A stretch of DNA of 64,000 nucleotides, from the IMG/VR virus record IMGVR_UViG_3300015263_000377; one strand, 5' to 3'. Source of the stretch: an uncultured virus (IMG/VR IMGVR_UViG_3300015263_000377). Taxonomy: Duplodnaviria > Heunggongvirae > Uroviricota > Caudoviricetes. The notes below the pieces were generated by a model. It ran no database searches. It was not told where the DNA came from and saw only the letters and a list, made by a program, of their open reading frames with translations. The translations under genes were made by a program, and so were the position numbers. Shown here piece after piece: positions 5,636 to 62,043 of this stretch. Numbering within the stretch: the stretch's first letter is position 1; every line of letters starts with the position of its first letter.

Positions 5636-5746
5636 CCTGCTACCGCAACGGTATCAGAACAAATGGTAGCCTCTGGAGCCGGGTGGTCCGGCGAGGCAAG
5701 GAGAGAGAAGACAGAAAGAGGGGACTGGCACTCCCCGATCACGCCA

Positions 5747-6922
<1,176 letters not shown>

Positions 6923-22911: not shown

Positions 22912-22929
22912 CTAAGTATCGAGAATGTT

Positions 22930-27580: not shown

Positions 27581-29626
<2,046 letters not shown>

Positions 29627-31000: not shown

Positions 31001-31200
31001 GCGACGTTCCCGAGCCCCGTACTGGTTTGATGCGGTGTACCCAAACGGGGTGCGGTGGGGTTCTAGGTCAGAGCGGACAGGAAGTGTTCCGCATGGTCTG
31101 CGGCTTCTGCGGGCAGAACTACTTCGTTCGGCTCGTGTTGGAGCCCGTGGACCCGAAGCCAGCATCGAACCTCCTCCCCCCGGTGGGTCGTGCTGAGTGA
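30997..31200 (+). CDS. Small zinc-finger protein
   Basis: CTQTGC...CGFC; translationally coupled. Confidence 0.6.
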   Translation: MSDVPEPRTGLMRCTQTGCGGVLGQSGQEVFRMVCGFCGQNYFVRLVLEPVDPKPASNLLPPVGRAE

Positions 31201-32140: not shown

Positions 32141-32144
32141 GGTC

Positions 32145-33128
32145 ATGGGGTACCGCTTCACCACGCCCGTCACTGTGTCTTATGGGGAAGAGAGCTTTTT
32201 CCTAGACCGAGACCTCAACTCGTTCCGTGACCAGCCCAACCGTTCGGTGGTCGTTCTTGATGGAGCGAACACCAATGACGCCGAGCTGGCATCCACGTGC
32301 GCAACGTTGATCGTCGACCTGGACGATCCCGCCAGTACGAAGCCTAGAGCGGTCGTCGTAGACAACGCTCACAAGTTCAAGCCTGAGAAGGCCATGAAGG
32401 CGTACTTGGAAGGCAAAGGCCCCAAGGATCTCGGGTGCGTTTTGGCCCTTGTGGTCCGAGGGGATAAGCCCCTCGTCTTCTGGTCGAAGCTCGGGGACAA
32501 GGTCACCTTGTTGGAGCGCAAGAAGCTCAAGACCTTCGACTCCAACAACGAGGTCGTGAAGTGGATCGAGCAAGAGGTGAAGCTCGCCAAGCTCACGATC
32601 GACTACCGCACGGCGAACATCATGTTTCATGCGGGAGGAGGAGACCTCTACCGCCTCGCCAGTGAGATCCAAAAGCTCCGGCTCATTGTACCTGCGGGTA
32701 CCGCGATCACGCTCGACCACCTCAAGCTAGTGATGACCCCCGGTTCCAACGTGGACCAGTGGACCGTCGCCGACGCAGCCTTCGACAAGAACACCAAGAA
32801 GGCTCTGAACGCCCTCTCCTCGCTCTACAAGTTCGTGGCCGAGGACCCGGCCATCTCCGTCTTGTACGCGATGATGAAGCAGGCGGAGCGTCTGTTCGTC
32901 ACCCGGTCCCTACTCGACTCAGGTGTAGCTCATGACGAGATCGCCTCTCGTATTGGGTTCCACCCGTACCGTTTCAAACAGACCCTTCTCCAGCAAGCGG
33001 GGAAGCACAGCAAGCGGAAGCTCGCCTCTGTGATGCAGAACCTATGCAAATTAGATGTAGACCTGAAAAGCACCAGCCGCTCAAAGAGGACGCTCGTTGA
33101 GATGGCGATTCTCGATCTTGCTAGCTGA
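32145..33128 (+). CDS. holA: DNA polymerase III delta subunit
   Basis: YGEESFF, GGDLYRLASEIQKL, HPYR, L.KLD.DLKS. Confidence 0.85.
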   Translation: MGYRFTTPVTVSYGEESFFLDRDLNSFRDQPNRSVVVLDGANTNDAELASTCATLIVDLDDPASTKPRAVVVDNAHKFKPEKAMKAYLEGKGPKDLGCVLALVVRGDKPLVFWSKLGDKVTLLERKKLKTFDSNNEVVKWIEQEVKLAKLTIDYRTANIMFHAGGGDLYRLASEIQKLRLIVPAGTAITLDHLKLVMTPGSNVDQWTVADAAFDKNTKKALNALSSLYKFVAEDPAISVLYAMMKQAERLFVTRSLLDSGVAHDEIASRIGFHPYRFKQTLLQQAGKHSKRKLASVMQNLCKLDVDLKSTSRSKRTLVEMAILDLAS

Positions 33129-45937: not shown

Positions 45938-46891
45938 GTGTACCTCTCCTATTCCGGGTTCAAGATGTACGGCGAATGCCCGTTCGCTTATTGGAACAGA
46001 TACGTCAACAAGACGTTGGTTTCCGCCGAGAACGGGGTGAACGCGCTCTACGGGAGCACCGTGGGTCTGGTCTTCGAGGCGTTCTATCGAGACCGTCTTT
46101 GGCGCCGGGTGGACTACCTGGACTACCTCCTATCGCTCGTTGAGCCGTCACTCGACATGGCGATGAAGGACCAGAAGGGTCGCGTGTACGACTGGCACGA
46201 CGAGAAGTCGAACTACCACAGCCGCGAGGAAGTCATCTCCGCTGCGAAGGAAGCTGTCCCCCGAGGGGTCAAGACGATCCGCCAGAACCGCCTTCTGGGC
46301 ACTCATGCGGTGGCTGAGATGAAGCTCGACCATCGTTTCGCTGAGCACATGATTGGGGGTCGCGCCGACTTCGTGATCAAGCGTATCGCCCCCCACGAGG
46401 ATCTCGTGATCCTCGATGGTAAGGGCTCCAAGTGGCGGGAGAAGTACGTCGATGGCAAGGAGTTGAAGCCCGGCCAGAAGATCCAAGGTACGCAGCTCAA
46501 GTGGTACGCCATGCTTCACCGAGCCAAGTTGAACGTGATCCCTGACAAGATCGGGTACGTCTTCTGGATGTTCGAGGACGAGCGGGCCATCGAGTGGGTC
46601 CAGTTCACGAACGCGGACCTCAACGCCCTCCAGAACGAGATCCTGGCCACGATGAATCGCATCGGGTCATCCGTCTCTGAGCTAGAGAAGGTTTCCGGGC
46701 TCATCCAAAGTCACGATGAGCTTCGACAGGAAAGGTTCCCGGCGCAAGCTGGGGATCACTGCCGTCTCTGCGCCTACGTGGAACGTTGCGAAGATGGGGC
46801 CAAGAAGGTGGCTTCATTTCGGCGCAAGTCCCGAGTAGCACTTCCGAAACCCGGTGTAGTAGAACCAGGTCTATGCCTTGACGACGAGTGA
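45938..46891 (+). CDS. PD-(D/E)XK nuclease (AddB/RecB-like)
   Basis: LSYS...CP, E...GRADF...LDGK, QLKWY, C-terminal HCRLCAY...C. Confidence 0.85.
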   Translation: MYLSYSGFKMYGECPFAYWNRYVNKTLVSAENGVNALYGSTVGLVFEAFYRDRLWRRVDYLDYLLSLVEPSLDMAMKDQKGRVYDWHDEKSNYHSREEVISAAKEAVPRGVKTIRQNRLLGTHAVAEMKLDHRFAEHMIGGRADFVIKRIAPHEDLVILDGKGSKWREKYVDGKELKPGQKIQGTQLKWYAMLHRAKLNVIPDKIGYVFWMFEDERAIEWVQFTNADLNALQNEILATMNRIGSSVSELEKVSGLIQSHDELRQERFPAQAGDHCRLCAYVERCEDGAKKVASFRRKSRVALPKPGVVEPGLCLDDE

Positions 46892-46899
46892 GGACCCCC

Positions 46900-47175
46900 A
46901 TGCGCTCCCCAGAAGAACTAAACGAGAAGATCCAAGACCTTCAAACGCGGCACGGCCACCTCATAAAACGCAAGGCGGAGTTGGGTGGTGAGCTTCGATC
47001 CAAGCGGGATGAGCTAGCCGCTCTCGTCAAGGAGATCCAGGCGGCGGGGTATAACCCCAAAACGCTCGTCGAGGACCGCAACAAGGTGCAGCAAGAGCTT
47101 GAGTCTCTCATCGAGGAGTTCGAGAAGGGCCTTGTGGAAGCCGAGACCAACCTGAGCGCTTACGACAAGAAGTGA
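46900..47175 (+). CDS. Small coiled-coil protein
   Basis: Heptad pattern throughout; GAGGA RBS. Confidence 0.75.
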   Translation: MRSPEELNEKIQDLQTRHGHLIKRKAELGGELRSKRDELAALVKEIQAAGYNPKTLVEDRNKVQQELESLIEEFEKGLVEAETNLSAYDKK

Positions 47176-47182
47176 GGAACAG

Positions 47183-48424
47183 ATGAAAATCAAACTCAAC
47201 GCGTCGAATTTGATCGCAGCGCTCGACCTCGTCAAGATCGTCAAGCCGCGACCCGTGACCCCTCAAGGGGGAGCCGGGTACCTCTTCGTGGTGACCGGGC
47301 TCGATTGCCAGGTCTACTCTCGGAACGATCAGTGTGTCGCCCGAGCCAACCTCAAGCTGGAGGAGTCGGACGGGGACGGCCAGTTCGTCTACCCGGCCGA
47401 GTACATCGAAGCTCTCAACTACCTCGATGGGCAAAACCTCACCTTCGAGGCGGAAGCTAAGGAGGATGAGCGGTTCATCGTTCGCTACGAAGCGGGCAAC
47501 GGTGCTCGTACGGAGCGAAGCTCATTCAGTCCACGGCTCCTCTCGACGTGTGATGACGATCTGAAGGCCACCACGACGACGTACGACTACCCCACGGCCA
47601 TTCTCAGGCAGGCCATCGACATGGCGAAGCCGTTTATGGCAGAGGCTTCGGACACCAAGGCGGAAGAGCAGTACAAGGCGGTTCAGGTGTTCGACGGCTC
47701 GAAGCCTGAACACGCCAAGGGTGACGGTCACCTCTTCGCAGCCGACTCCGTTCGCGCCTACTACTTCTGGTGCGACGCCTTCGCCGGCAAAGGTGTCGAG
47801 GTCCACGGACAACACCTCGGCCCCCTCCAGCAGTTTCTCAGCAAGAGCGCTGGCAAGGTGACGTTCCGAATCGGCTCTCACTTCACGTTCTTGGAGAACG
47901 TTTCGGGTCAGGTGCTCGGTTGGCCCAAGCACGCCAAGAGCCATCCCCAGTTCAAATACTACGCTCTCAAGAACGACAAGAACATCTTTCTCATCGACAA
48001 GGTCCAATTCCTCAACTCACTCAAGTACACGCGTAGTGAGTTGGACAAGGACCGCGACAAGATCAAGATCATCTTCAACCACGAGAGGCGTCAGCTTCAG
48101 TTCGGCGTTTCGGAAGGGACGTCCAAGACGGACAGCATCCCGGTCAGGGTTCGCCCCAAGAAAGAGGGTGAAACGGAGATGATCGAGGCCCGTGACTGGA
48201 GCTTCAACATCAACCTGAACCACATGATCGACCTCGTGGAGAAGGTCAAGAACAACGAGGTCGAGTTCCACATCCTGATCGTCCCAGCGTCGGCGGACCG
48301 CAAGGAAGTGGGTATGTTCCGCACGATCGATGACTTTCACCTGGACGAAAGCGGCAACGTGACCGTCGAACCAGAAGGTACGTTCTCATGCCGAGTGACC
48401 CGCTTCATGCCGTCGAAGGAGTAG
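47183..48424 (+). CDS. Probable DNA polymerase III beta sliding clamp
   Basis: MKIKLNASNLIAAL start, FAADSVR, C-terminal FMP; size and co-occurrence with holA/holB/dnaX. Confidence 0.65.
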   Translation: MKIKLNASNLIAALDLVKIVKPRPVTPQGGAGYLFVVTGLDCQVYSRNDQCVARANLKLEESDGDGQFVYPAEYIEALNYLDGQNLTFEAEAKEDERFIVRYEAGNGARTERSSFSPRLLSTCDDDLKATTTTYDYPTAILRQAIDMAKPFMAEASDTKAEEQYKAVQVFDGSKPEHAKGDGHLFAADSVRAYYFWCDAFAGKGVEVHGQHLGPLQQFLSKSAGKVTFRIGSHFTFLENVSGQVLGWPKHAKSHPQFKYYALKNDKNIFLIDKVQFLNSLKYTRSELDKDRDKIKIIFNHERRQLQFGVSEGTSKTDSIPVRVRPKKEGETEMIEARDWSFNINLNHMIDLVEKVKNNEVEFHILIVPASADRKEVGMFRTIDDFHLDESGNVTVEPEGTFSCRVTRFMPSKE

Positions 48425-49080
48425 ACGGCTGGGCGCAACGGGTCAGGCATCTACAGACCTCCGCGATTCGCCTCAAGACGATGCGAGATCAACTCTCTCG
48501 GGAGTTGGTCTCTAAAGAGGTGGAGATCGCGGAGCTAGCCCGTCGCCAAGAAGTCCTCACCAAAGTCGCGGAACTATACCGGGTCCTCATGGACCAGATG
48601 GTCATGGGTCAGGTGCGCACCATCGAGACCATCGTGTCCGAGGGCCTTCGTACGATCTTCTTCGACCAAGACCTCAGCTTCCGGGCCGAAGTGTCGCAGA
48701 AGTACAACAAGATCGCGGTCGAGTTCTACATCTGCCAAGGCGACCCGGACAACGGTGGAATCAAAGGCTCCCCTCTCGACTCGTTCGGGGGTGGTCCGTC
48801 AAGCATCGCCAGCCTCATTCTTCGGATCCTCACCCTCCTCCGGCTGAAACGGCAGCGCACGTTGTTGCTTGATGAGACTCTCGCGGCTGTCTCCGATGAC
48901 TACATCGAGGCGACGGGACAGTTTCTCCAAAAACTAGCGGCCACGAGTGATCTGTCTCTGCTCATGGTAACCCACAAGCCCGCTTTCATTGACCACGCGA
49001 CTCTCTCGTACCACGGGGACTCGAAGACCCAAGGTGTAAGGCAGGAGTTCGTGGTGAAAAAGCTGCGGAGCGTATCGTGA
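48388..49080 (+). CDS. SbcC/Rad50-like ATPase, C-terminal half
   Basis: Short coiled coil, signature SFGGG, Walker B LLLDE, H-loop MVTH; no Walker A. Confidence 0.85.
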   Translation: MPSDPLHAVEGVDGWAQRVRHLQTSAIRLKTMRDQLSRELVSKEVEIAELARRQEVLTKVAELYRVLMDQMVMGQVRTIETIVSEGLRTIFFDQDLSFRAEVSQKYNKIAVEFYICQGDPDNGGIKGSPLDSFGGGPSSIASLILRILTLLRLKRQRTLLLDETLAAVSDDYIEATGQFLQKLAATSDLSLLMVTHKPAFIDHATLSYHGDSKTQGVRQEFVVKKLRSVS

Positions 49081-49697
49081 GAGGCGAGCCCGAAGTTCGG
49101 GTTCGCCTCAACCAGCTCCTAGCGGAAGAGGTGAACAAGCGGATTGCGGAGGCTTCGGAGAGGCTTCCGCATCGCTGCGTTCACAACCACCGTCATCCGC
49201 TCGACCAACGCAAGCAAGTGGATGGGGAGCCCAACGAAGGCTACAACCGTATCGCGAACGGACGAGGGCTCCCCGTCATCCAGACCATCGGTCTTTGCAT
49301 GCTCGGCTCGGACGACCCCGAGACCTGGGGTGGTACCATTTGCGAGGACCCGATTGACGCGAAAAGGTGTCCGGACTTCAAGCCTGCGAAGCTCAAGGCG
49401 GACCTGCTCAAAGAGTTTCGCGAGCAGCTCCGGGACGAGGCGTGGGCTCGGGAGCATCTACCCGAGGTCTTCGCCCTCATGTGGCTCTTGGAAGAAACTG
49501 AAGCGAAGGAACAACCTCAGATCGTTGAGACTCAGGAGAAGATCGACGAGCTGGTAGGGGAAGCCGAGGCTCCCCCTGTTCCCGTGGAAGCCGCTGAGGC
49601 TACGATCCCCGAAGCTCCCGTGGAAACCGTTGTGCCGTGGTGGAAGGCTTGGCTCCTCCGCCTTCTCGGAGCGGAGCCTAAGAGGCTCCGGAGTTGA
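49077..49697 (+). CDS. Hypothetical protein (Cys cluster)
   Basis: Coupled ORF; CVHN...LC...IC...CPDF. Confidence 0.7.
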   Translation: MRGEPEVRVRLNQLLAEEVNKRIAEASERLPHRCVHNHRHPLDQRKQVDGEPNEGYNRIANGRGLPVIQTIGLCMLGSDDPETWGGTICEDPIDAKRCPDFKPAKLKADLLKEFREQLRDEAWAREHLPEVFALMWLLEETEAKEQPQIVETQEKIDELVGEAEAPPVPVEAAEATIPEAPVETVVPWWKAWLLRLLGAEPKRLRS

Positions 49698-50263
49698 ACT
49701 TTTCCGCTCTTTCCCACTTGCTCGTGACGGAGCGGCTCCGCCAACGCGCAGCGAGCGCCGGGGGTTTCTCTGTTCCGGCTATGGAGGAGCGGCAAGTCCC
49801 GGAAAACGTCGAAACTCTCTTGGTCACGAACATGCGTGGCCTCTTTTTGCCTAGCAAGCGTGGGGCGGCGGGGAACGCTCGGTACGCCTTCTTTATGTGC
49901 CCTCCGTCCCATGAGAACGACGTGTTGGAGCGGCTCTACAGCACCGTTCTACAGCTCGCCACCACTTCCGGGTGGGCCAATGTATTTGGGGGGATCCCAG
50001 AAGCCCTAGCCGCCATGAACAAGTCGAACACCCCCCCGAAGACCATCGTGGTCCCATCGGACCACGAGCTTTCGGAAGGGGAGTCCGTTTCGATCCAAGG
50101 TCTACAGGTGGTTGTAGGCCCACTTCCTCAAGGATGTGCTCTAGTTGCTGCCAGTCCTCCAGCCCTCGGTGTCTATACCAGGGTCGGGGACTATCTCGGT
50201 CTCCAGTTCTACAACGTCCCCCGGACGTTGATGGTGGTGCGACCGAATGACAGCCTGGGTTGA
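49694..50263 (+). CDS. Hypothetical protein
   Basis: Coupled ORF (TTGA overlap). Confidence 0.6.
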   Translation: MNFSALSHLLVTERLRQRAASAGGFSVPAMEERQVPENVETLLVTNMRGLFLPSKRGAAGNARYAFFMCPPSHENDVLERLYSTVLQLATTSGWANVFGGIPEALAAMNKSNTPPKTIVVPSDHELSEGESVSIQGLQVVVGPLPQGCALVAASPPALGVYTRVGDYLGLQFYNVPRTLMVVRPNDSLG

Positions 50264-50945
50264 GACGCTCGTAGAGTACGCGCAAAAGGGGGTGGACGAA
50301 CGCGTCCGTGAAGCCCTCTGGTCCCGTGGCGCCTCAGACGAGCAGATCGATCTCCTTCGGGTAGGTTACCTAGACAGGAAGCTCCCGGAGGCCGAGTACC
50401 CCGAGGAGTTTTTGGAGTGGTGCTGGAAGGGTCGCAAGCTCCAAGACTGCTACGTCTTCCCGCTCACCAACCCTCTTGGTGAGATTCAGGGGTTTCAATT
50501 CAGGGGTGTGGAGCGGGAAGGTGGGATCTACTCGGACTACCTCCTCACGCACGCAGAGCCAGTCTTTTTCGGGCTAGGTCAAGCCATGCCTTCAATTTGG
50601 GAGACCGAGTCAGCTCTCCCAGTGGAAGGGGTCTTCGACTTCTTTCCAACGCAGCGCGTTGTACCTTTCACGATTGCCACCTTGACCGCCAAGGTCAGTG
50701 ATGTACTCCTCCGCACCTTCAAGCGTCTTGTAAAGCGCACCTACCTCTTTTATGATAATGATGCGATCGGCCGTAAAGCGTGCGCCACATTCCGCAAAGA
50801 ATGCGGGGACTTATTTGAGGTTCGTATTCCCGAGTACCCCGTAGGGCTCACCCTGCGAGGCAAACCAGTCAAAGACCCCGGTGACCTCTGGGAAGCGTGG
50901 GGCGACGACCGATTCAAGCCGTATCTTCTAGCGCAAATGGAGTGA
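50247..50945 (+). CDS. DnaG-like primase catalytic/TOPRIM core (no zinc-binding domain)
   Basis: L.SRG, FPL, GFQFR, VEGVFD, YDNDAIG, KDPGD. Confidence 0.85.
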   Translation: MTAWVETLVEYAQKGVDERVREALWSRGASDEQIDLLRVGYLDRKLPEAEYPEEFLEWCWKGRKLQDCYVFPLTNPLGEIQGFQFRGVEREGGIYSDYLLTHAEPVFFGLGQAMPSIWETESALPVEGVFDFFPTQRVVPFTIATLTAKVSDVLLRTFKRLVKRTYLFYDNDAIGRKACATFRKECGDLFEVRIPEYPVGLTLRGKPVKDPGDLWEAWGDDRFKPYLLAQME

Positions 50946-50947
50946 AC

Positions 50948-51439
50948 ATGGGTCAGACGTACGAAAACGCCGAGGGAGTGGAGTCTATCGCAAGCCAGCT
51001 CATCCCTGCGCACCACCCGGAATTGGCGACAGCTCGGTTCCGCTACGTCTTCAAGGAGAAGGCTGGCAAGAAGGGTGGCAAGGTCGTCTACGGCACGGTC
51101 AAGAAGTGCAGCGACCTCATGATCTTCCTCATCGAATCAGACTACCTCATCGAAGTCGCCTTGGATGCCTGGAACCCCCTCGACGGACCCAAGCGGACGG
51201 CTCTCGTCGATCATCTCTTGGAGCGCTGCTTCGGGGAAGAGGACGAGGAGACGGGGGACATGAAGTGGAAGCTCCGGGAGCCCGACGTACAGGAGTTCTC
51301 GACCATCCTCCGTAGGCACGGAGCCTGGAACGACGACCTCGTCAACTTCGTCTCGGTCGCGAACACCCTGGACCTCAGCTACATGACGGCTGGGGTAGAT
51401 GCTCAACAGACCCAAACGACTGGAGCCGCCGCTCACTGA
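50948..51439 (+). CDS. Phage putative metallopeptidase-family protein, degenerate HExxH
   Basis: G.VKK...DYLIEV...W..L...RTALVDHLL.RC...PDVQEF..ILRRHG. Confidence 0.65.
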   Translation: MGQTYENAEGVESIASQLIPAHHPELATARFRYVFKEKAGKKGGKVVYGTVKKCSDLMIFLIESDYLIEVALDAWNPLDGPKRTALVDHLLERCFGEEDEETGDMKWKLREPDVQEFSTILRRHGAWNDDLVNFVSVANTLDLSYMTAGVDAQQTQTTGAAAH

Positions 51440-51452
51440 GTGAGGTTTCATC

Positions 51453-52960
<1,508 letters not shown>

Positions 52961-52974
<14 letters not shown>

Positions 52975-54982
52975 GTGGGTGGTCCTAGAGTTGTCCCCTC
53001 AAGGGGAGGATGAGGACCCCGAAGTCCTCTCCTCAGCCCTTGTGCGTCTGATTCGAGACAAGGCGGTCGAGATTTTCATCCCGGCTTCAATTTCGATTCA
53101 AGGGGACAGTCGAGTCATCCACAAGCTGATCGACAACTATGTGTTCATCCGTAGAACACTACCAGACAACGCCTTCCTCCGTCTGGAAGGCACGAAGTAC
53201 ATCTCCTCTGTCTTGACGATCGCCCGCTCCGACAAGAAGACGACGGTGCGGGAGATGGCCTGCGTCCAAGACTCCGATATCGAGCGGATGCGAAAGCAGA
53301 TCCACGTCGAGACGGAGCAAGGGATCGAAGTCGGGGACGAAGTCCAGGTGATGAGCGGCGCCTACAAGGGCATCAACGGCCGTATCATCGAGGAGATCCC
53401 GGAGAACGACAGCGTTCAAGTATTCATCAAGCTCAGGTCGAAAGAGGCCATCGTCACCCTCCCGAGGAGCTTCCTTCGGTTCGTTTCCAAGGATCAGTCG
53501 GATCTCCCGACCTTCTCTCCGTTCCTCACCAAAATCGAGAGGATCCGCGATTGGGTTCGGGCCGTGCGACCCCTTTTGGTCTGGGATCCGCTCAGCATTC
53601 AACCCTTGGAACACGCCATCAAGAGGTACGCGAACGTTGAGCTGGCGATGCGGTGGTGGCACCGCCGAGACCCCCTCCTAGAGCAGATGCGGCTCATTGA
53701 GCGTGTACGTCAAACCCCTGACGCTGACCTAGCGCCCCTGCTCCGCAAACACGAGGAGTTTAGTCTCGTAAACGGGTGGCTTCGCCAGGATCGGAGCCTG
53801 GTCTTCCTTGGGATCAAGACACGTCATGAGCGCGTGAAGCACATGACCTCGATCATACAAAAGAACCCCGGCTTCTTCTACTCCGTGTCTACGGACCCCG
53901 TGGTGAGCCAGTCTGAAACGCAAATTCTAAACGGGTTCAACGAGCGGGTAAAGACGAAGCAACGCGAGACCCAATGGCTTCAAGACGTTGTGCGGCGACT
54001 TGACTCCATCGCTAGGGACCTGGACAACATCGAAGCGCTCACGTGGAGGAGACCGGACATGTTCGAGAACATCATCATCGACGGGCACAACCTCGCCTAC
54101 CGAGTCGCCAACGCTCTGGGTGTGATGAAGACCCCCCTCACGGACTCCGATGGCAACCCAACCGGGATGGTCTTCGGGTTCCTCAAAAGCCTTACCAGCT
54201 ACAAGAAGCGGTTCCCAAACGCGAAGGTCTACGTGGTTTGGGATGGATCACCCCAACGCCGCATTGAAATGTTCCCAGGTTACAAATTGAAGCGTCGCCA
54301 AAAGCGGGCATCCAACGGCGCAACGACACCTGATAACCAAATGACCCGACTCAGGAACATCCTTCCGACACTGGGGGTCACTCAGGCGTTCAACAAGGAC
54401 GAAGAGACCGACGACATCATTGCGTGTCTGGTCAGGGGAAAACTCAAAGGACAACGCAACGTTATCGTCTCCACGGACCAAGACTTCCTACAACTGGTGA
54501 CACTTACCGATATTGTGCTAGCACCCAAGGTCGGAAATCGACAAGAGACCCTTTACGACCGGGATAAAGTCGTGGAAGAATATGGGGTCACGCCTGAATC
54601 TTTGGTCCAGCTTCGGGCGTTGCTGGGTGACACTTCGGACGAGATACCGGGCATCCCTATGGTGTCCGACAAAATCCTCACGGGGCTCTTGAAGAACTAC
54701 GGCACTGTTGAAGACATGTTGGCATCGAACCTGTCGGGAACCACCCCGAAACAGTATGCCAAGATCCGTTCAGCGGGGGACCAAGTTCGTCTCAATTTGA
54801 AACTCATGACGCTCCTCACGGACCTTCCGTTCGAGGAGATCCCGCCAACCCCCGATGCGAAGACAGCCTCCGAGACCATAGGGGGTCTCAACATCCAGGC
54901 TGACCCGATCGTGGACCCGTTCTTCCAAACTTCAGTTGGTTTCGTGAAGCAGCAACAAGGGCAGTTCAATTTCGAGAGCTGA
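52961..54982 (+). CDS. NusG (NGN+KOW) domain fused to a 5'-3' exonuclease/flap endonuclease (PolA N-terminal type)
   Basis: WVVL...IFIP...KLIDNYVFI...VGDEVQVMSGAYKGINGRI; C-terminal IIDGHNLAYR, VVWDG, YK..R, ETDDII, STDQDFLQL, LLGDTSDEIPGI. Confidence 0.85.
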
Positions 54983-54999
54983 CGGGAGGAGAGGGCATC

Positions 55000-55635
55000 A
55001 TGAGCGGTGGCTACGTCTTTTCGGTCGATCCGGCAGAACTTGCCAACCGATTCGCAGCCCCCGATGAGCCCTTATTCGACGAGTTGGAAGAGGAGGAAGA
55101 GGGTGACGACGCCCAGCCCTTGCTCTCAACGCTCAGCTTCGAGAACGAGATCAAGCCGCTACTCGACCGGATTCCGGAACGCGAAGCGGACTTGATTGAC
55201 CTGTACTACATCCAAAAGAAGCGTCAGGCGGACATCGCCGAAATCTTCGGGGTGACGCAGGCGGCTATCAGCTACCGACTCGACCGAGGACTCCAGCGAA
55301 TTCGATTCCTCCTGTCTATCCCCCAAGTCAGCGAGGAGGAGATGCGCCGCGACCTCCCCGACGTACCGTTCAAACCCATCGACGTGAACATCTTGGTCGG
55401 CATGTGGCAGACCACGTGTCAGTCAGAAGTCGCTAGTCGGCTCGGTCTTACGCAGGGCAGAGTTCGGCACCGCTTCTTTGGCGCCGTGACCACGCTGGAG
55501 AAACGAGCTGGGGAGGATTCTCGGTTCTCTCGGTACAGCAAGGTCTTCTCTTCGATCGCGTCCAAGAAATTCAACATCTTGCGCGAGGTCAAATTGCCCC
55601 AGTGGTCGAACAGGGGTGGGGACGGGTGCTTCTAA
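55000..55635 (+). CDS. Sigma-factor-like protein with two region-4 HTH motifs
   Basis: IPEREADLIDLYY...QADIAEIFGVTQAAISYRL; CQSEVASRLGLTQGRVRHRF. Confidence 0.75.
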   Translation: MSGGYVFSVDPAELANRFAAPDEPLFDELEEEEEGDDAQPLLSTLSFENEIKPLLDRIPEREADLIDLYYIQKKRQADIAEIFGVTQAAISYRLDRGLQRIRFLLSIPQVSEEEMRRDLPDVPFKPIDVNILVGMWQTTCQSEVASRLGLTQGRVRHRFFGAVTTLEKRAGEDSRFSRYSKVFSSIASKKFNILREVKLPQWSNRGGDGCF

Positions 55636-55682
55636 GCTAAGAGCCCGTTTCTTCTTATGGCGTGCGGTTCAAGAGGAACCGC

Positions 55683-56585
55683 ATGCCGCTTGTCTCGAAC
55701 CTTCGGGCACACGACCACAAGTTCGAGTTTGCCACGGCCGCTGGTAAGTGGGAGTGGACGACTCGGTTGGACGTGTCGCAATCGAACCCCCTCTACTCGG
55801 TTCGGGACATCAAGTCACCGTACGGGTTACTGAGGGACTCCATCCCCATCCCCGGCGAGGTTGTCTCGGCGATGGCCGAGTCGATCGACGAGTTGAAGTC
55901 CAACTTCGCTCCGAACATCCTGCTCGGACCTCCGACGTTGCTCAACTTCACGGTCGACGAAGGACGTGGTTTTGCCGAGCCCGAGGTGGTTCTCATCACC
56001 AACGACGGAGTCTACGGCTCGCTTCTAGGGGTCACCCTCACCACATCGGCGGCGTATGTTCGGGTAACCCCAGCGAACGTTGGGAACCTCGCCCTGAACG
56101 AGTCCGGTCAGTTTCAAATCGAGGTGGATGCGACGGATCTGCTTGCTACCAGCAGCCCGTACAACGAAACCATCGCGATTCAAGACCCCTCAGCGACCAA
56201 CAACCCGCAGACGTTTCCTGTCACCATCACGGTTCGGCCGAAGGCAACCATCTACACGAACCCAACGGTACTCAACTTCAGTGTTGTCAAACCGTTGTCC
56301 GGGTCCTTCCCGTCGATCCCGACCCAAACCTTCACGGTCCAAAACACTGGGTTGGTAGGATCGGTTCTGGACTTCCAGGTTCAGAAGCTCACGGGGCTCT
56401 CCGACTGGCTCACGAGCTTCCTTCCGTCTTCGGGCACGCTTCTCTCTAGCGAGTCGACCGATATCACGGTCACGGTCGTACCCCCGGACAACCTGTTGCA
56501 AGGGACCTATTCGGAGAAGCTCCGCGTTTCTGGTTACAGCTCCAACAGCTACCAGGACGTTGAGATTGTCCTTGTCGTAACGTGA
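55683..56585 (+). CDS. Structural protein with tandem BACON/Ig-like domains
   Basis: Thr/Ser/Val-rich; PT.LNF, YVRVTP, WL...SSGTL, GTY repeats. Confidence 0.7.
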   Translation: MPLVSNLRAHDHKFEFATAAGKWEWTTRLDVSQSNPLYSVRDIKSPYGLLRDSIPIPGEVVSAMAESIDELKSNFAPNILLGPPTLLNFTVDEGRGFAEPEVVLITNDGVYGSLLGVTLTTSAAYVRVTPANVGNLALNESGQFQIEVDATDLLATSSPYNETIAIQDPSATNNPQTFPVTITVRPKATIYTNPTVLNFSVVKPLSGSFPSIPTQTFTVQNTGLVGSVLDFQVQKLTGLSDWLTSFLPSSGTLLSSESTDITVTVVPPDNLLQGTYSEKLRVSGYSSNSYQDVEIVLVVT

Positions 56586-56592
56586 GGTCAGG

Positions 56593-56865
56593 ATGAGTAA
56601 CAAGGACTTCGACATCGGCTCCATGTTCCAGGTCCAAGCCTCCCACGGCCTGGACGCCTTCTTCGCTCGTGAGCCTCAAATGGTCACCCCAACGGGGCGT
56701 CGGAAGGTGGCATCGATCCAAGACCTCGCCTCGTTCACGAGGTTGAGCAACGACACGCTCATCCACAAGGCCGAGAAGGACTTGTGGGCCATCAAGCGTG
56801 AGGCGGACGGCTCGATGGTCATTGAGCGCCAGTTCGACGACAACGGAAAGCCTCTCCGGTACTGA
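56593..56865 (+). CDS. Hypothetical protein (morphogenesis region)
   Basis: Clean ORF with RBS. Confidence 0.75.
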   Translation: MSNKDFDIGSMFQVQASHGLDAFFAREPQMVTPTGRRKVASIQDLASFTRLSNDTLIHKAEKDLWAIKREADGSMVIERQFDDNGKPLRY

Positions 56866-56875
56866 GGAGGATCCC

Positions 56876-58363
56876 TTGAGTACCCAGCAAAAGGTCCGGC
56901 TGATCATCGCCAAGTCTGGCGGGTTCTTCAAGAGCGAGGATGACGACTCCCCGTCCCCGCCGCCGCCCTTTATCGGGGGATCGGATGGCCTGAAACGGAA
57001 CATCCCCAAGAACCACGACTTCGACCCCAAGGCCCTGAAGCCGCTCGCGAGGATGCTCTTCTCGTCCAGCGTGTCGCTCGGACATGCGGTCGCTGCCTAC
57101 AAGGAATTCACCCGGCTCAAGTCTGCCCGAATCTCACCGGACGGAATGCTTGGTGGTCGAGGTTACGTCACCAAGGTCAAGGACATCCGCAGCAAGCTCC
57201 AGCAGGCTTGTGAGCTGCTCTCTTCGATTACGGATACGGTTCACGACGAGATCAACGCCCCTCACTGGCAACCGAGCCTAGCTGAGCTTGGGGCGAACGA
57301 TGCCGAGGACGTGACCGAGTTCATGGAGGAGGCCGAGGAGGTTCTTGAGGACCCGGAGGCGTTTGGGGAGAAGGAAGTCCAAGAGATCGAGAAGAAGAAC
57401 GATGGCCCAGGGGGTACGCCGAACACCAAGCCCAAGCCCAAGTCGAAGTCGAAGACCAAGACGAAGGACAAAAGCTCTGAGCTGCCTGGCGGTGGGGATG
57501 CCGGCAACGAAGCTATCCCTCAAGGGGAGTCTTTCAAGCAGCATGTGAAGAACGCCATGCAGAAGCAGGCGAACAGCTCTGTTTCCCCAGCCACCCTCCC
57601 AGGCCCTCGGGTAGACCACCTCGACCGAGGAGAGCAAACGGGGCCGTACGGGTCATACAACCGGGATGAGCCTCTCACGGAAGATGCGTGGGGTCTCAGC
57701 GAAGGGGTAGACGACGAGTACGACTACGAATCGGACTTCTCCAACAACTTGCTCGACAAGACTGGTCTTGAAGCATGGGGGGAGTCAGCGATCCCTGACG
57801 CGACCAGCGACCCCACGGAGACGGAAGGGCGGGACTTCGGCATCGGTTACGGAGCCAAAGGACGAGGCACCGAGGGTTACGGCACCAAGTCGCCAGACGG
57901 CCGAGGCGTTTACGGCCCCTCCAGCGACCTCCCGAACGATCCCGGCGCCCCCACCCGAGATACGGAAGAGGGGGCCGGTCCGTATCTGGACGGCGTCGAG
58001 CGTAACGTTTGGGCGGGTTGTGGGTGCGGGCCTCAAGCAGAATCCAAGCTCCCGTTTGACGGCCCGGATCCAGTCGCTAGGTCGGACTACTTCGAGGGTA
58101 ACAAGGGCAACCAATTCAACGTGACCCACCAAGGGGAGCACGTTCATGATTGGCGTATGTTGCCGGATGACGGGTCGTCGAGGGTGCCGGGCGACCAAGT
58201 GCCACCCCTCTACAACTACGACCGAGATTTGATGGACGTTGGGCAGAGTCTCGAACACCAAGACCCTCCGTACGTCAAGTACGACTGGACCACGCACAAC
58301 TACCGCAACGACATTCAAGATGTCTTCCGGCACGAAGACGATGACAGAGGTTCCAATGGCTGA
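56876..58363 (+). CDS. Hypothetical acidic, low-complexity protein (morphogenesis region)
   Basis: GAGGAGG RBS before TTG 56876. Confidence 0.75.
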   Translation: MSTQQKVRLIIAKSGGFFKSEDDDSPSPPPPFIGGSDGLKRNIPKNHDFDPKALKPLARMLFSSSVSLGHAVAAYKEFTRLKSARISPDGMLGGRGYVTKVKDIRSKLQQACELLSSITDTVHDEINAPHWQPSLAELGANDAEDVTEFMEEAEEVLEDPEAFGEKEVQEIEKKNDGPGGTPNTKPKPKSKSKTKTKDKSSELPGGGDAGNEAIPQGESFKQHVKNAMQKQANSSVSPATLPGPRVDHLDRGEQTGPYGSYNRDEPLTEDAWGLSEGVDDEYDYESDFSNNLLDKTGLEAWGESAIPDATSDPTETEGRDFGIGYGAKGRGTEGYGTKSPDGRGVYGPSSDLPNDPGAPTRDTEEGAGPYLDGVERNVWAGCGCGPQAESKLPFDGPDPVARSDYFEGNKGNQFNVTHQGEHVHDWRMLPDDGSSRVPGDQVPPLYNYDRDLMDVGQSLEHQDPPYVKYDWTTHNYRNDIQDVFRHEDDDRGSNG

Positions 58364-60371
58364 TCTCGGCGATCTCACCAACTTCTTGAAAGAGGGCTCC
58401 GTCGCCGACCTCGATTGGCTCGATGTCGATGAACAGCAGTATCGGGACCTGGACAAGCTCCCGAAGCAAAACCTCGACATCTCCCCGGACCTCCAGGCCA
58501 TGTGGGATCACAAGGACCAGCCGGCAGGGGCTTATCTCGTCCCGAACAAGGACAAGGTTCCGTCGCTGTCTGCCTTGAGCGAGGCTCACCAGGGTAAGCA
58601 AGCGGCAGTGGAGCAGGTCATCAAGGTGGCTCGCTACACGCTCATGCAGACGACCAACCTGGGGCAGTTGAAGCAGGCGCTCACGTCCAGGTTCGATACG
58701 GACCTCATCACGAACGCCAAGACCGCTCTTGCCTCGGTTCTGCGGGAGCGTGGGCTACTTGGTCGGTACTACGTGTCGGCCGCCGACTTCACCAACTGCG
58801 CACAGTCGTCGAAGACGTTGACCACGTTCGTCAGGCGTTACGCCGCTGACGCCCGTTTCGTGGTCGCCAAGAGCGATTGCCAAGGGTGCATCCACAATTC
58901 CGCCGACACATGTGGAGTCTTCAAGAAGAAGATCGTTCTGGAGGTTCCCTACACGCCTGAGTTGGCTGACGCGGTCGAGCGTTCTCAGTCGGCCAAGGGG
59001 AAGCAAGTTCAGGCGTCCTCCACAGATCCCCGTGGTCGTATTCAGGCGGCGTATCTCGCCAAGGATGTGACTGTTGCGGGGTCGGTAGAGACCCCGAAGC
59101 CCGTGGTCGATCCGGCTCGCCAACTCCGCCAAGCGTCGGCTCCGGGCAAGGTTCACCTCCCTGTTTTCCAGACCGAAGCGCAACGCCTTCTGGCCTCTGA
59201 GCAGGCGTGGCAGCCTCCGACCCCCGAGGGAAAGACGGCTGGGGTCAAGACCGGGGAGGACCGGACGGCCTTTGAGGTCACGTCGCTTCTTCGTCGAGAG
59301 ATGCTCAAGGGGCGTAGCGTCCCCGAGCTGGTTCATGCTCTGAAGCTCTCCTTCTCGGTTTCAGACCTCAAGAACACGGCCTCCCATTGGCGGCCCTTGA
59401 TCGATCAAGCGGGCCTCTACGGGACCGTCTACGCTACGCAGGACTCCTTTGACGACTGCGGGGTTGGAGCAGACTTCTTCGCGAAGCATAACCCCACCGT
59501 CAAGGCGATCGTGGCTGGGGGTAAGTGCAACGGGTGCATCTACAACAAGATGTCCCGCTGCCTCATCTACGGCCGCCCCCTCGCGGCGAACACCGAAACC
59601 CCCCTGACGGATGAGACCGTCAAGCAAGTCATCTGGGAGCACCGTCTGGCGGGCAAGCTGGAGACGGGTGCGGAGAAGATCGCTTGGGGTCCGACGCCCA
59701 AGGAAGCCCTGAAGGCCATCTACAGGGTCGCCTCTCAGGTAGGTAAGGCTGACTCTACGCCAATGCGATCATACGTCGAGCAAGCCTTCCGTGGTGCAGA
59801 TCATGGGCACGTCACGGCGGGCCTCACGAAGCGGGAAATCGTCAAGACGGCCGCCCGATACTTGAACGAGGGCCTTTACGGCACCCAACTTGGGGCGGTC
59901 CTCAAGCGCCAGTTCGATCCCCGAGACATCAAGGCGGCGGCTCCGGAGTTGAAGACCATCTTGGCGGAGCAAGGTCTCCAGGGGATCTACTACGTAGATC
60001 CGATGGTCTACGGGGACTACGCGAAGGGTTGCGAGGAAGGGGCAAGGCTCCACCGTTCGCGTCTCGTCCCCTACGTCAAGTTGGGGTCCAAGTGCTCTAG
60101 CTGCGTGCTTCAAACGAAGGTCGGCTACTGCTCCAAGTACAACAAGGATCTGGTCAACGAGCCGCCGTACGCCGACAAGAAGGCTCAACAGCAGGAGATC
60201 CTCTCCTCGGGTCAATCGACGGAGATCAACCTCGCCAGCCTCATGCAAAACACCAAGTCAATCGTCGCGGAATTCGGCATGAAGTCCGGGATTGAGATCG
60301 ACTTGAACCCGGAGCCGACGAAGGCTGCTCCGGTCTCTGTCGAGCTGGGGGGTCACAAGATCGACCTGTAG
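58356..60371 (+). CDS. Large protein with three Cys-rich repeats
   Basis: Three copies of GL.G..Y......C...CxxC-x7/8-C. Confidence 0.8.
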   Translation: MADLGDLTNFLKEGSVADLDWLDVDEQQYRDLDKLPKQNLDISPDLQAMWDHKDQPAGAYLVPNKDKVPSLSALSEAHQGKQAAVEQVIKVARYTLMQTTNLGQLKQALTSRFDTDLITNAKTALASVLRERGLLGRYYVSAADFTNCAQSSKTLTTFVRRYAADARFVVAKSDCQGCIHNSADTCGVFKKKIVLEVPYTPELADAVERSQSAKGKQVQASSTDPRGRIQAAYLAKDVTVAGSVETPKPVVDPARQLRQASAPGKVHLPVFQTEAQRLLASEQAWQPPTPEGKTAGVKTGEDRTAFEVTSLLRREMLKGRSVPELVHALKLSFSVSDLKNTASHWRPLIDQAGLYGTVYATQDSFDDCGVGADFFAKHNPTVKAIVAGGKCNGCIYNKMSRCLIYGRPLAANTETPLTDETVKQVIWEHRLAGKLETGAEKIAWGPTPKEALKAIYRVASQVGKADSTPMRSYVEQAFRGADHGHVTAGLTKREIVKTAARYLNEGLYGTQLGAVLKRQFDPRDIKAAAPELKTILAEQGLQGIYYVDPMVYGDYAKGCEEGARLHRSRLVPYVKLGSKCSSCVLQTKVGYCSKYNKDLVNEPPYADKKAQQQEILSSGQSTEINLASLMQNTKSIVAEFGMKSGIEIDLNPEPTKAAPVSVELGGHKIDL

Positions 60372-60428
60372 GGCTGAGAATCTAGCGATCGGGGCGGGTT
60401 GATACTCTTGTTATGCCTGCTCTAAGGC

Positions 60429-61052
60429 ATGTCCCTCGCCTTGATCGCCCGTGTGGCAGCCCGATTCACCCTCCCACGGGAATCGTACTTACCGAAAGAG
60501 GTACGGGGTACGCCCCCCAACGTTGACCCTCAAGGGACGGACTTGGCGATCTGGACGTACGAGTCTCCCAATGTGCGGACGGGAGAACCCCTCCTTCTAG
60601 CCATCGCGTTTGCCGCCAAGCAGAACAAACCGATGTTCCACAACTCGTTTCGGAGCGAGGCGAGTAGGCAGGCGGCTATCAGGGATGCCATCGACTCGCG
60701 TAAACGGGTCCTTGAGTACAAGCAAAAGCAGCTTGAGGAGCGCCGTAACTACCAACACGGCATCCAAGTCGGAGAGATTTACAACACCTCTTGGGGTTAC
60801 GACCAGACCAACGTGGACTTCTACGAGGTGGTCGAGATCCGGGGGAAGGACATCCTTGTTCGTGAGGTCGCGAAGCGCGAGGTCAGCACGGACAAGAATG
60901 TCACCATGGTTGCCCCCCAGCAGGGCAAGTACGTGAGCGGTCCGGTTCGGGCTCGCCCGACCCCTGGGGGTTCCTTCAAGGTGGATGGTCACAACGCTCA
61001 CAAGTGGAGCGGGAAGCCTGTCTACGAGACGACCTCTGGTTGGGGGCACTGA
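60429..61052 (+). CDS. Hypothetical protein with N-terminal IARVAARF motif
   Basis: C-terminal SWGYDQTNVDFYEVV; shared N-terminal motif. Confidence 0.78.
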   Translation: MSLALIARVAARFTLPRESYLPKEVRGTPPNVDPQGTDLAIWTYESPNVRTGEPLLLAIAFAAKQNKPMFHNSFRSEASRQAAIRDAIDSRKRVLEYKQKQLEERRNYQHGIQVGEIYNTSWGYDQTNVDFYEVVEIRGKDILVREVAKREVSTDKNVTMVAPQQGKYVSGPVRARPTPGGSFKVDGHNAHKWSGKPVYETTSGWGH

Positions 61053-61054
61053 AC

Positions 61055-61441
61055 GTGTCCGACGCCCTCATCCTTCGGGTAGCAGCCCGGTTCCTCCACG
61101 CCGACCAGCCTCCTGGCCAGCGTAAGAAGGACAAGGACTTGGTGAAGCCTGTCAACCGACCCAAAGGCATCGACCGCTCCATCGTCAAGGAGCACGGCAA
61201 GCCAATGGATGAAGGCCATGATGAAACCGTCTCCCCCAACCGAAGAGACCTTCGACCCGAGGATGTATTCAGCCCTAAGCCCGACCAAACCAGTGTCCGC
61301 AACTTGGCTGAAACTGGCAAAGACCTAGCCGAAGTCATCAAGAAGCAAATTCCCAAAGACAAAGGCTATGCTACTGTAAAGAACCTCTCCCAATACCTCA
61401 TTGAAACTGAGGGTGGGGGCGGCACTAAATCGGTGAAGTGA
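61055..61441 (+). CDS. Hypothetical protein with N-terminal ILRVAARF motif
   Basis: Shared N-terminal motif. Confidence 0.72.
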   Translation: MSDALILRVAARFLHADQPPGQRKKDKDLVKPVNRPKGIDRSIVKEHGKPMDEGHDETVSPNRRDLRPEDVFSPKPDQTSVRNLAETGKDLAEVIKKQIPKDKGYATVKNLSQYLIETEGGGGTKSVK

Positions 61442-61448
61442 GGAGACC

Positions 61449-62039
61449 ATGAAGAAGGACGGAACAGAGCGCGTGGAAGCGGTGCTTCACTTGCTCCCGG
61501 AGCAAGACGCTCCTCACGGCGCCGACAGTCATCGTCTGGAGGGGGTCAAACGAGGTCGAGGTCGACCCCGCAAGATCGAGCGCAAGCCGACCACGAGCGA
61601 CCTTGAGTACCACGCGGAGATGACGCGGGCTCGGGAGGCGTTCATCTCTTCGGACCCGGTCCTCAAGAAGATCGAGGAGCACGGGGATGCCCTGGACGTT
61701 CTCTTCCTCATCAAGAAAGAGGTCGCAGCGGAGGCAGCAAGCCTTCACTTCGAGCGGATCGAAACGCAGAAGCGAGGCAAGGAGACGGGGCAAGTCTCAA
61801 CTCGTCGCATCGAAGCGCTCAAGAAGATCGCCGACATCGAGTTGAAGATCAAAGAGATCGACTCGGAGTCCATCAACCTGAGCAGCGAGCGCATGCAGAA
61901 GCTCTTCACCATGTGGGTCGAGACGATGCGTGAGGTAGCACAGGAGACGCTCCCGGAAGAGGCTATGAACCTCTTTTTCAACCGCTTCGCCTCCGTGATG
62001 GAAGGGTGGGAGGAACGAGCTACGAACACCTTGAGGTGA
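61449..62039 (+). CDS. Probable terminase small subunit with AT-hook
   Basis: KRGRGRPRK, helical body, directly upstream of terL; function inferred from position. Confidence 0.55.
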   Translation: MKKDGTERVEAVLHLLPEQDAPHGADSHRLEGVKRGRGRPRKIERKPTTSDLEYHAEMTRAREAFISSDPVLKKIEEHGDALDVLFLIKKEVAAEAASLHFERIETQKRGKETGQVSTRRIEALKKIADIELKIKEIDSESINLSSERMQKLFTMWVETMREVAQETLPEEAMNLFFNRFASVMEGWEERATNTLR

Positions 62040-62043
62040 CCTC

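Follow-up and report, generated by a model that had tools for sequence, protein, structure and literature searches.

A NusG-family transcription factor fused to a flap endonuclease in a large clade of huge phages

The stretch of DNA analysed here, hereafter the window, comprises 64,000 nucleotides of the uncultured virus record IMGVR_UViG_3300015263_000377 (IMG/VR; Caudoviricetes). It belongs to a phage genome of about 0.5 Mb and carries a single gene in which a NusG-type transcription factor and a DNA flap endonuclease (FEN) are joined as one protein. We found that many related huge phages, forming a large clade, have kept this NusG-FEN fusion. The protein is a NusG paralogue with a built-in nuclease cargo, and both halves look functional, judging from the residues that they conserve. 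To our knowledge, NusG is the sole transcription factor common to all cellular life, and it normally acts through partners recruited by its KOW domain. The interpretation that we prefer, with a probability of roughly 40%, is that the phage protein is a specialised NusG paralogue tethering the flap nuclease to the host RNA polymerase at transcription-replication junctions.

Results

A single reading frame encodes NusG, a helical spacer and FEN

The open reading frame (ORF) of the fusion gene runs through all 673 residues without an internal stop (Table 1). Pfam assigned NusG/NGN to aa 6-110 (23.2 bits against a cut-off of 22.2), KOW to aa 124-155 (25.1 against 22.3), 5_3_exonuc_N to aa 371-542 (98.7 against 34.3) and 5_3_exonuc to aa 543-625 (60.2 against 40), and PHROGs matched the same protein to both phrog_107 (exonuclease) and phrog_6386 (transcription antiterminator). 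When PDB was searched by sequence, the C-terminal half retrieved the Pol I 5' nuclease (6vde, 1.2e-26), Taq (3.8e-24) and FenA (5.4e-15), and the N-terminal part retrieved NusG (2lq8, 4.2e-7 over aa 4-168). An AlphaFold2 (AF2) model built on 120 homologues had a mean predicted local distance difference test score (pLDDT) of 84.7 and a predicted template modelling score (pTM) of 0.57. It contains a confident NGN domain (1-118), a KOW barrel (121-176), helices of mixed confidence (187-362) and a confident FEN domain (368-655). A first-pass annotation made from the sequence alone had already given the coordinates of the gene and the limits of the NGN/KOW part, the helical linker and a nuclease beginning at Met367, all of them correctly.

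The fusion is continuous in most relatives

The nearest public record (G001) carries the gene with 2022 of 2022 bases identical. It is a viral contig of 83,250 bp with an estimated completeness of 17%, so that the whole genome should measure close to 0.5 Mb. A search of sequencing runs yielded DNA contig sets of a single study, one of them possibly the source, and no RNA data; mapping placed six short and poorly matching contigs on the window, none of which spans the gene. A homologue search found 214 proteins; among the 120 that were listed, 117 span 91% or more of the query with identities of 37-71%, and the contigs bearing them reach 512 kb. Public databases hold automatic names only for the fusion proteins, and many of the homologues bear the JGI name '5'-3' exonuclease/transcription antitermination factor NusG'.

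Scanning viral contigs yielded 269 confirmed relatives, from which 69 distinct loci were retained, many of them near-duplicates from related samples, so that there are fewer independent lineages than the locus counts suggest. In 61 of the 69 loci the frame is unbroken over 568-688 aa (one of the 61 is cut by the contig end). The remaining eight comprised three split loci, four with FEN only (one close, three distant) and one with NusG only (L067). The first-pass annotation had proposed that a stop before position 54059 in relatives would mark the fusion as an artefact; those 61 loci read straight through. Among the cultured phages in INPHARED, 206 records matched, all through the FEN part only, and 0 of 206 cover at least 80% of the query.

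Both halves keep the residues of their families

A profile built from 37 family N-termini retrieved only NusG/Spt5 chains from PDB (10 of 10 matches, the best being 2lq8 at 1.9e-10). Within these N-termini Pfam detected NusG (PF02357) in 23 of 37 and KOW (PF00467) in 26 of 37, and Foldseek matched the modelled N-terminus to the NusG chain 9a56_B. The model shows an alpha/beta NGN domain at pLDDT 83-97, followed by KOW as a five-strand barrel (aa 127-176). By sequence and by model, the protein is a member of the NusG/Spt5 family, with an NGN domain and a KOW domain directly after it. W6, P41, Y60 and F62 are invariant in the NGN domain of the family alignment, and from work on RfaH and NusG we take W6, Y60 and F62 to lie on the polymerase-facing hydrophobic face. 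Across 119 relatives the mean identity to the query was 0.51 in NGN and 0.71 in KOW, whose length is constant at 58 aa. Such strong conservation suggests that the module, and KOW in particular, is maintained for a conserved partner. The NCBIfam scores of the N-terminus fell under every subfamily cut-off (UpxY 38.6 against 100, nusG 37.4 against 135.7, LoaP 27 against 125, RfaH 22.7 against 144.5), and because they are so far below, we regard the protein as a NusG-family member of no described subfamily.

The FEN part resembled the Mycobacterium smegmatis flap endonuclease 6c36 most closely (Foldseek E 8.5e-18, target TM 0.78); ExoIX, T5 D15 and Taq were also matched, with target TM values of up to 0.78-0.82. 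Its mean identity to the query was 0.52 among the 119 relatives. D374, E481, E482, D484, D506, D508, Y441, K442 and R445 are invariant in 120 sequences, and D428, D485, D557 and D560 are retained in at least 90% of them. D374, D428, E482, D484, D485, D506, D508, D557 and D560 align with the metal-ligand positions of Taq, and Y441, K442 and R445 are the Tyr, Lys and Arg of the helical arch. The two Pfam domains, the FEN fold, the acidic ligands and the arch residues all place this part in the PolA/FEN type, and since all or nearly all sequences keep these ligands and arch residues, an active nuclease is to be expected. Near the C-terminus, the FF motif has F654 in 107 and F655 in 100 of the 120 sequences, and it also occurs in a stand-alone FEN of another phage (L063). 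A complex prediction of the phage beta clamp with aa 367-673 scored 0.00 and 0.00 against a mark of 0.32 in a run without controls, and speaks neither for nor against a contact, for which the FF motif would be a candidate docking site.

The spacer is variable and the nuclease begins at a probable former start codon

The helix that follows KOW is present in fused and split forms and absent from the NusG-only forms (the NusG-only ORF of L067 stops before it). The rest of the spacer had an identity of only 0.20 and a length of 83-163 aa among the 119 relatives, and the pLDDT of this block was 44-89. A Protein Atlas search with the spacer gave no usable feature match, only generic helical-repeat proteins at TM 0.27-0.38.

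Met367 stands seven residues ahead of the first catalytic Asp, where stand-alone FENs start. The position is M in 79 and V in 13 of the 120 sequences, and it is best read as the former start of a FEN gene. The first-pass annotation had pointed to a GGAGGAG upstream of the ATG at 54059, which is indeed there with a spacing of 7 nt, and had suggested that the nuclease may also be made alone. We examined the internal site in 38 distinct fused loci, leaving out 11 that local alignment did not map. The codon aligned with Met367 was ATG in 26, GTG in 2, TTG in 1 and no start codon in 9. Pairing with the anti-Shine-Dalgarno sequence at -6 kcal/mol or below was found at 14 of the 38 internal sites, compared with 29 of 38 starts of the downstream gene for a sigma-70 region-4-only protein (hereafter sigma-4) and 15.5% of 760 random in-frame sites; the excess over random sites may partly reflect purine-rich codons where the spacer ends in charged residues, and the loci are related to one another rather than independent. 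In a separate count of 33 loci, which left out 17 fused loci failing the motif match, a clade of about nine loci used GAGGT for the sigma-4 gene and had no Shine-Dalgarno sequence at the internal site. On the 14/38 pairing and the 9/38 loci without a start codon, we rejected nuclease-only translation as a feature of the family. The strong Shine-Dalgarno sequence is real in the window phage and its closest relatives, and a nuclease-only product is possible in the window phage on that sequence.

NusG-only, split and stand-alone forms

NusG-only loci numbered 13, namely L067 and 12 further ones found with P0210 as query; single-protein locus searches with P0194 and P0214 found no loci. The 13 loci lie on huge-phage contigs of up to 536 kb in the same order, dnaX - NusG - sigma-4. 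In L067 and in 12 of 12 others the gene is about 175-225 aa long and stops directly behind KOW, lacking both spacer and FEN. A PF02739 FEN was found in 0 of 6 NusG-only records, including a 536-kb record rated 100% complete and a 402-kb record with terminal repeats; PolA was found in 4 of the 6 and RNase HI in 1. Since these records hold no FEN at all, its presence tracks the NusG gene.

An NGN-KOW profile search returned 661 representatives at E <=1e-3 and 83 at <=1e-30. Among the best 150, in which FEN and spacer were judged with local hidden Markov models (HMMs) from the family alignment, 53 proteins had a length of 500 aa or more, and FEN was present in 52 of them; 12 shorter proteins had the spacer and no FEN, and 84 shorter ones had neither. 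In P0196, P0213, P0228, P0255, P0259 and P0277 the NGN-KOW module is C-terminal, behind 95-325 residues (P0196 has 541 aa, with the module at 326-492 and no FEN by HMM). Such proteins are either other fusions or the result of mis-called starts. In a FastTree of 250 NGN-KOW sequences (171 columns, arbitrary root), 180 FEN-bearing or split forms, together with five short proteins, made up one clade (support 0.91) nested among NusG-only forms. A single gain of FEN is the simpler reading of this tree, not a proven one.

In the split loci (L037, L047, L054) an ORF for NusG and spacer stops, and a FEN ORF in another frame starts at the equivalent of Met367. The FEN gene lies directly behind the NusG half, the two overlapping as ATGA in L047. 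A search for shorter proteins found eight, of which seven were NusG + spacer halves and one was a truncated fusion. When the tree was rooted on L067, splits appeared three times, as a clade of six, as L047 next to the fused P0072, and as P0128 next to P0106 (supports 0.83-0.87). Because they are nested in fused clades, the splits are secondary and give no evidence of a read-through origin of the fusion.

The stand-alone FEN of L063 (10004-10972) has 322 aa, is 38% identical and begins at the Met367 position. This FEN, from a high-GC phage, carries an Arg/Glu/Ser-rich insertion at about aa 118-140, 'ERDRERSPSASWEREREREEDR', which is absent in the fused family. In fused and split genomes, FEN occurs only as an appendage of NusG or as its immediate downstream neighbour, with the joint at Met367. 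The NusG - sigma-4 pair is an old and constant unit.

Gene content of complete relatives

For gene content we searched five complete relatives of 407-529 kb, of which four have terminal repeats; some counts refer to six records. In 5 of 5 there was one PF02739 match and one NusG match, both in the same fused ORF, which is the sole NusG and the sole FEN of these genomes. A family A polymerase (PolA) without a 5' nuclease is encoded as a separate ORF in 5 of 5; family B polymerase and DnaE were not found in the complete relatives. RNase HI was found in 0 of 6 records. Pfam found an RNA polymerase beta domain in 0 of 5 and a beta' domain in 0 of 6 records, a search that may miss very divergent phage polymerases, and given that neither beta nor beta' was found, the host polymerase is the likely target of the NusG module. 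T7-type single-subunit RNA polymerase (PF00940) was found in 0 of 6 records, but the control was also silent, so that its absence is not established. Sigma region 2 was present elsewhere in the genome in 3 of 6 records.

The gene lies between a replication block and structural genes

The first-pass annotation had placed the gene next to a sigma-like gene at the boundary between replication and morphogenesis, and its surroundings bear this out. Upstream lies a replication and recombination block with genes for an NAD ligase, a RecD2-like helicase, a RuvC-like protein, RecA/UvsX, SbcCD-like proteins, a PD-(D/E)XK nuclease, the beta clamp, an ATPase, a short DnaG-type Toprim protein, a metallopeptidase and dnaX. 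Downstream of the sigma-4 gene come conserved proteins of no assigned role (one with an Ig-like domain) and then the large terminase. The order Toprim - metallopeptidase - dnaX - NusG-FEN - sigma-4 - two conserved proteins is widely kept: across the 69 loci, dnaX was found in 61, sigma-4 in 65 and the gene after sigma-4 in 61, and the sigma-4 gene also follows in 12 of 12 NusG-only loci. That the NusG gene regulates the neighbouring structural/terminase block is only conjecture. A scan of 46000-64000 for consensus sites found 2 promoter-like and 12 terminator-like sites, where shuffled sequence would yield 3.1 and 15.7, and is uninformative.

The sigma-4 protein matches only positions 101-162 of a 165-position extracytoplasmic function (ECF) sigma model. 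It has an acidic N-terminus, a second helix-turn-helix near aa 139-158 and a conserved C-terminus, FNILxExKLPxW, which is common to the distant L067. The beta clamp had no Pfam or PHROG hit; a profile of its family matched 1vpk (1.1e-6) and 8dt6 (2.1e-6), and its AF2 model (pLDDT 93.9) matched 8dt6_B by Foldseek (E 3.7e-18, TM 0.73-0.80), with TM values of 0.73-0.82 to bacterial clamps overall. With delta' (31190-32140) and delta (32091-33128) encoded further upstream, the phage has a full bacterial-type clamp and loader (beta clamp, delta, delta', dnaX).

Within the window dnaX is split by a run of 32 C into ORFs 51453..52733 and 52597..52974. At the same position G001 has ordinary sequence coding for Pro, Ala and Gln in one continuous dnaX ORF, and a 16-C run was found in 0 of 74 loci examined. 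We rejected a programmed frameshift in dnaX on these grounds; the run is probably an assembly defect of the window. The Toprim protein (50247-50945, 232 aa) matches only the DnaG catalytic centre (model positions 202-327 of 414), with no zinc-binding or helicase-binding part detected in that match. Its gene always precedes the 'phage metallopeptidase' PF18894 gene (50897-51439) inside the replication block.

Table 1 Positions of the NusG-FEN gene, its parts and selected neighbours in the window
Feature	Position	Strand	Remarks
NusG-linker-FEN gene	52961..54982	+	GTG start, 673 aa; 14-nt overlap with the end of dnaX
NGN domain (aa 1-118)	52961..53314	+	Pfam, N-termini profile against PDB, AF2 pLDDT 83-97
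KOW domain (aa 119-176)	53315..53488	+	Pfam; best-conserved portion of the protein
Post-KOW helix (aa 185-206, SPFxxKxxRxRxW)	53513..53578	+	Alignment, AF2; identity 0.44
Variable helical spacer (aa 207-366)	53579..54058	+	AF2; long helices 258-301 and 313-362
Internal GGAGGAG	54045-54051	+	7 nt upstream of ATG 54059 (Met367)
PolA/FEN-type 5' nuclease (aa 367-655), helical arch and H3TH	54059..54925	+	Pfam, Foldseek, conserved residues
C-terminal motif [IV][QKN][PA][ED]x[IL][LIV]xxFF (aa 645-655)	54893..54925	+	Alignment of 120 sequences
Low-confidence tail with GFxK, then stop codon	54926..54982	+	AF2; GFxK in 68/120 sequences
dnaX-type clamp-loader gene	51453..52974	+	Frame broken in the window by 32-C run 52603-52634; upstream in 61/69 loci
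Sigma-70 region-4-only protein, 211 aa	55000..55635	+	Pfam Sigma70_r4 aa 54-102, without region 2
Phage DnaN-type beta sliding clamp, 413 aa	47183..48424	+	Profile, AF2, Foldseek

Other genes in the window

Positions 708-22912 hold 46 tRNA genes, which represent most anticodon families, and a transfer-messenger RNA (tmRNA) gene at 22562-22912 with the tag ANDNAVQAAA, all on the + strand. They are interleaved with a gene for EF-Tu (5663-6922), a Dam-like methylase gene and HNH genes. This tRNA/tmRNA/EF-Tu island is very large for a phage. We also observed genes for a GroEL-type chaperonin (27962-29626), a B12-dependent (class II) ribonucleotide reductase (33144-35084) and an orotidine 5'-monophosphate (OMP) decarboxylase (18919-19689).

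Discussion

A nuclease that may ride on the host RNA polymerase

In the tether that we prefer, the NGN domain would dock on the clamp helices of the beta' subunit of the host RNA polymerase, by analogy with the NusG family, whose NGN domains bind beta' and whose KOW acts as an adaptor according to the abstract of PMC2995049. The highly conserved KOW would bind a conserved host partner. The helical spacer, with two helices of about 45 residues each and a reach of several nanometres, would let FEN get to DNA behind or beside the polymerase, and the nuclease would travel with the transcribing polymerase, or be delivered by it, to the DNA in its immediate wake. Its task would be to cut the 5' flaps and RNA-DNA junctions formed where transcription meets replication. 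Its candidate substrates may include transcripts turned into primers, RNA 5' tails left after encounters of replisome and polymerase, and displaced strands; a replisome can reportedly restart on mRNA, as Pomerantz and O'Donnell are said to have found in 2008. The setting would be genomes of about 0.4-0.5 Mb replicated by a PolA without its own 5' nuclease.

Several observations weigh against the tether. The NGN domain clears its Pfam threshold narrowly (23.2 against 22.2), and the N-terminus lies far below the NCBIfam subfamily cut-offs. The arrangement of the domains is uncertain in the AF2 model, with a pTM of 0.57 and a pLDDT of 44-89 in the spacer block. FENs need a free 5' end or flap and an intact R-loop has none, so that the nuclease could act on just a part of the conflict structures. 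The covalent link is not indispensable, since three loci and about seven short proteins have the split at Met367. The L063 FEN shares the C-terminal motif and comes from a 202-kb, 94%-complete record with no NusG-like gene. Finally, the root of the larger tree is arbitrary, so that gain and loss of FEN are indistinguishable.

Alternative explanations

The most credible alternative, in our view a doubtful one, is that the two halves have independent jobs, NusG being an ordinary antiterminator for long operons and FEN removing Okazaki primers for PolA; the fusion would then perhaps secure co-expression alone, with no mechanistic coupling. An obvious replication role is indeed offered by a PolA without 5' nuclease in genomes where no other FEN or RNase HI was found. 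The poor conservation and variable length (83-163 aa) of the spacer, the splits, which arise at least three times in the tree, and the stand-alone FEN of L063 with its shared C-terminal motif are in keeping with two separable functions. However, the fusion is retained down to about 37% identity in most lineages, the genes remain adjacent and overlapping where they are split, and FEN is never away from the NusG gene in the 5 of 5 complete relatives. In addition, sister phages with the same PolA-type replication genes do without FEN, which indicates that a phage FEN is not a fixed requirement of the replisome.

Next comes replication-coupled late transcription, which we judge unlikely. The NusG part and sigma-4 would form a late-gene device, and FEN would serve it mainly as a sensor or anchor for replication intermediates such as nicks, flaps or clamps left on lagging-strand DNA. 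By the same unlikely scheme, the polymerase would turn to the structural genes only where the DNA is being replicated, following the logic of T4 gp45-gp33-gp55 with unrelated parts. The position of the gene between the replication and the structural/terminase genes fits such a device, as does the sigma-4 gene behind it in 65/69 loci and in 12/12 NusG-only loci. LoaP, TaA and UpxY are encoded beside their target operons, as the review PMC7819879 states. The sigma-like protein lacks region 2, and NGN domains bind beta' (abstract of PMC2995049). A beta clamp and a complete clamp loader are also among the genes of the phage, and the T4 sliding clamp is a transcription activator according to the abstract of PMC7892883. 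On the other hand, the invariant catalytic residues argue for a working nuclease rather than a DNA-binding module, and the NusG-only relatives, with the same sigma-4 partner, do without FEN. A clamp contact of the protein is conjecture only, and no late promoter or recruitment element was identified: the promoter and terminator scan stayed at or below the shuffled expectation, and no search aimed at an ops-like element was made.

A more specific and decidedly improbable version takes NusG and the sigma-4-only protein as a two-piece, sigma-like late-transcription device, in which FEN, acquired in one large clade, would read replication intermediates. The NGN domain might then sit at the beta' clamp-helix site of sigma region 2 and the sigma-4 protein at the beta flap, an equally speculative placement. 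If true, late transcription would be both licensed by and coupled to replication, as an analogue of the T4 clamp-gp33-gp55 system made from different parts.

Torpedo-type termination or RNA decay, in which the nuclease would degrade the nascent transcript in the 5'-to-3' direction and dislodge the polymerase, was put forward in the first-pass annotation and is highly improbable. A 5'-to-3' nuclease on an elongation factor does recall Rat1/Xrn2 and RNase J1, but the domain is of the structure-specific PolA/FEN type, and its closest folds are FenA, ExoIX, T5 D15 and Taq. The domain is unrelated to Xrn or RNase J, and nucleases of its family cut flaps and duplex 5' ends, not free single-stranded RNA, which makes this mechanism the least likely one. 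That the fusion is an assembly or indel artefact, or a strain-specific read-through of two genes, has a negligible chance and is already refuted by the relatives: an assembly-type defect does lie 330 nt upstream (the 32-C run breaking dnaX), but the independent record G001 is identical over all 2022 bases, the frame is continuous in 61/69 loci from many samples, and, in the best 150 representatives, FEN is found in 52/53 of those with 500 aa or more.

Meaning of the fusion and comparison with known systems

The fusion suggests that transcription and DNA replication are physically connected in these phages in a way that has not been studied. A replication nuclease has been hard-wired to NusG in a virus, and the connection was kept across a very large and diverse set of phages that are among the biggest known. 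If the tether is real, it would offer a natural system for the reconciliation of transcription and replication on one template, a problem usually approached through collisions and R-loops in cells, and it would be a ready-made, RNA-polymerase-guided nuclease. The FEN-free NusG-only phages, the fused phages and the natural splits form a comparison set that makes the question testable.

In keeping with the first-pass annotation, to which the architecture was not familiar from characterised proteins, a full-text literature search covering sources other than subscription journals, and seeing those in part, found no published description of a NusG-FEN fusion. The words 'nuclease' and 'fused' do not occur in the text of the NusG review PMC7819879 as available to us, and the only extra NusG domain discussed in that text is the DII domain of Thermotoga maritima.

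On the nuclease side, FenA, ExoIX/Xni, T5 D15 and the Pol I 5' nuclease have the same pair of Pfam domains, the same fold, and the same acidic ligands and arch residues. Unlike these stand-alone or Pol I enzymes, the phage FEN is attached to a transcription factor and has a family-specific C-terminal FF motif. The likeness to T4 gp45/gp33/gp55, where a replication protein is tied to RNA polymerase accessory factors at the late switch (abstract of PMC7892883), is a functional analogy only: there is no homology, the replication part of the phage protein is a nuclease instead of a clamp, and its contact with the clamp is conjectural.

On the transcription side, the specialised paralogues RfaH, LoaP, UpxY, TaA and ActX have the same NGN + KOW core, and the best NCBIfam matches of the phage protein were UpxY, NusG, LoaP and RfaH. 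As with LoaP, TaA and UpxY, whose genes lie beside their target operons (PMC7819879), the phage gene stands beside a long block that it could serve, and on a mobile genome. The phage protein differs from them in falling below all subfamily cut-offs and in having about 500 extra residues, made up of the helix, the spacer and the nuclease. It shares fold and family with housekeeping NusG/Spt5, as shown by the PDB profile (10/10) and Foldseek (9a56_B), and the mode of action in which NGN sits on beta' and KOW is an adaptor, described in the abstract of PMC2995049, may be expected for it too. Unlike housekeeping NusG, it is phage-encoded and divergent, and in place of a recruited Rho or ribosomal protein S10 it has a nuclease built in as its cargo.

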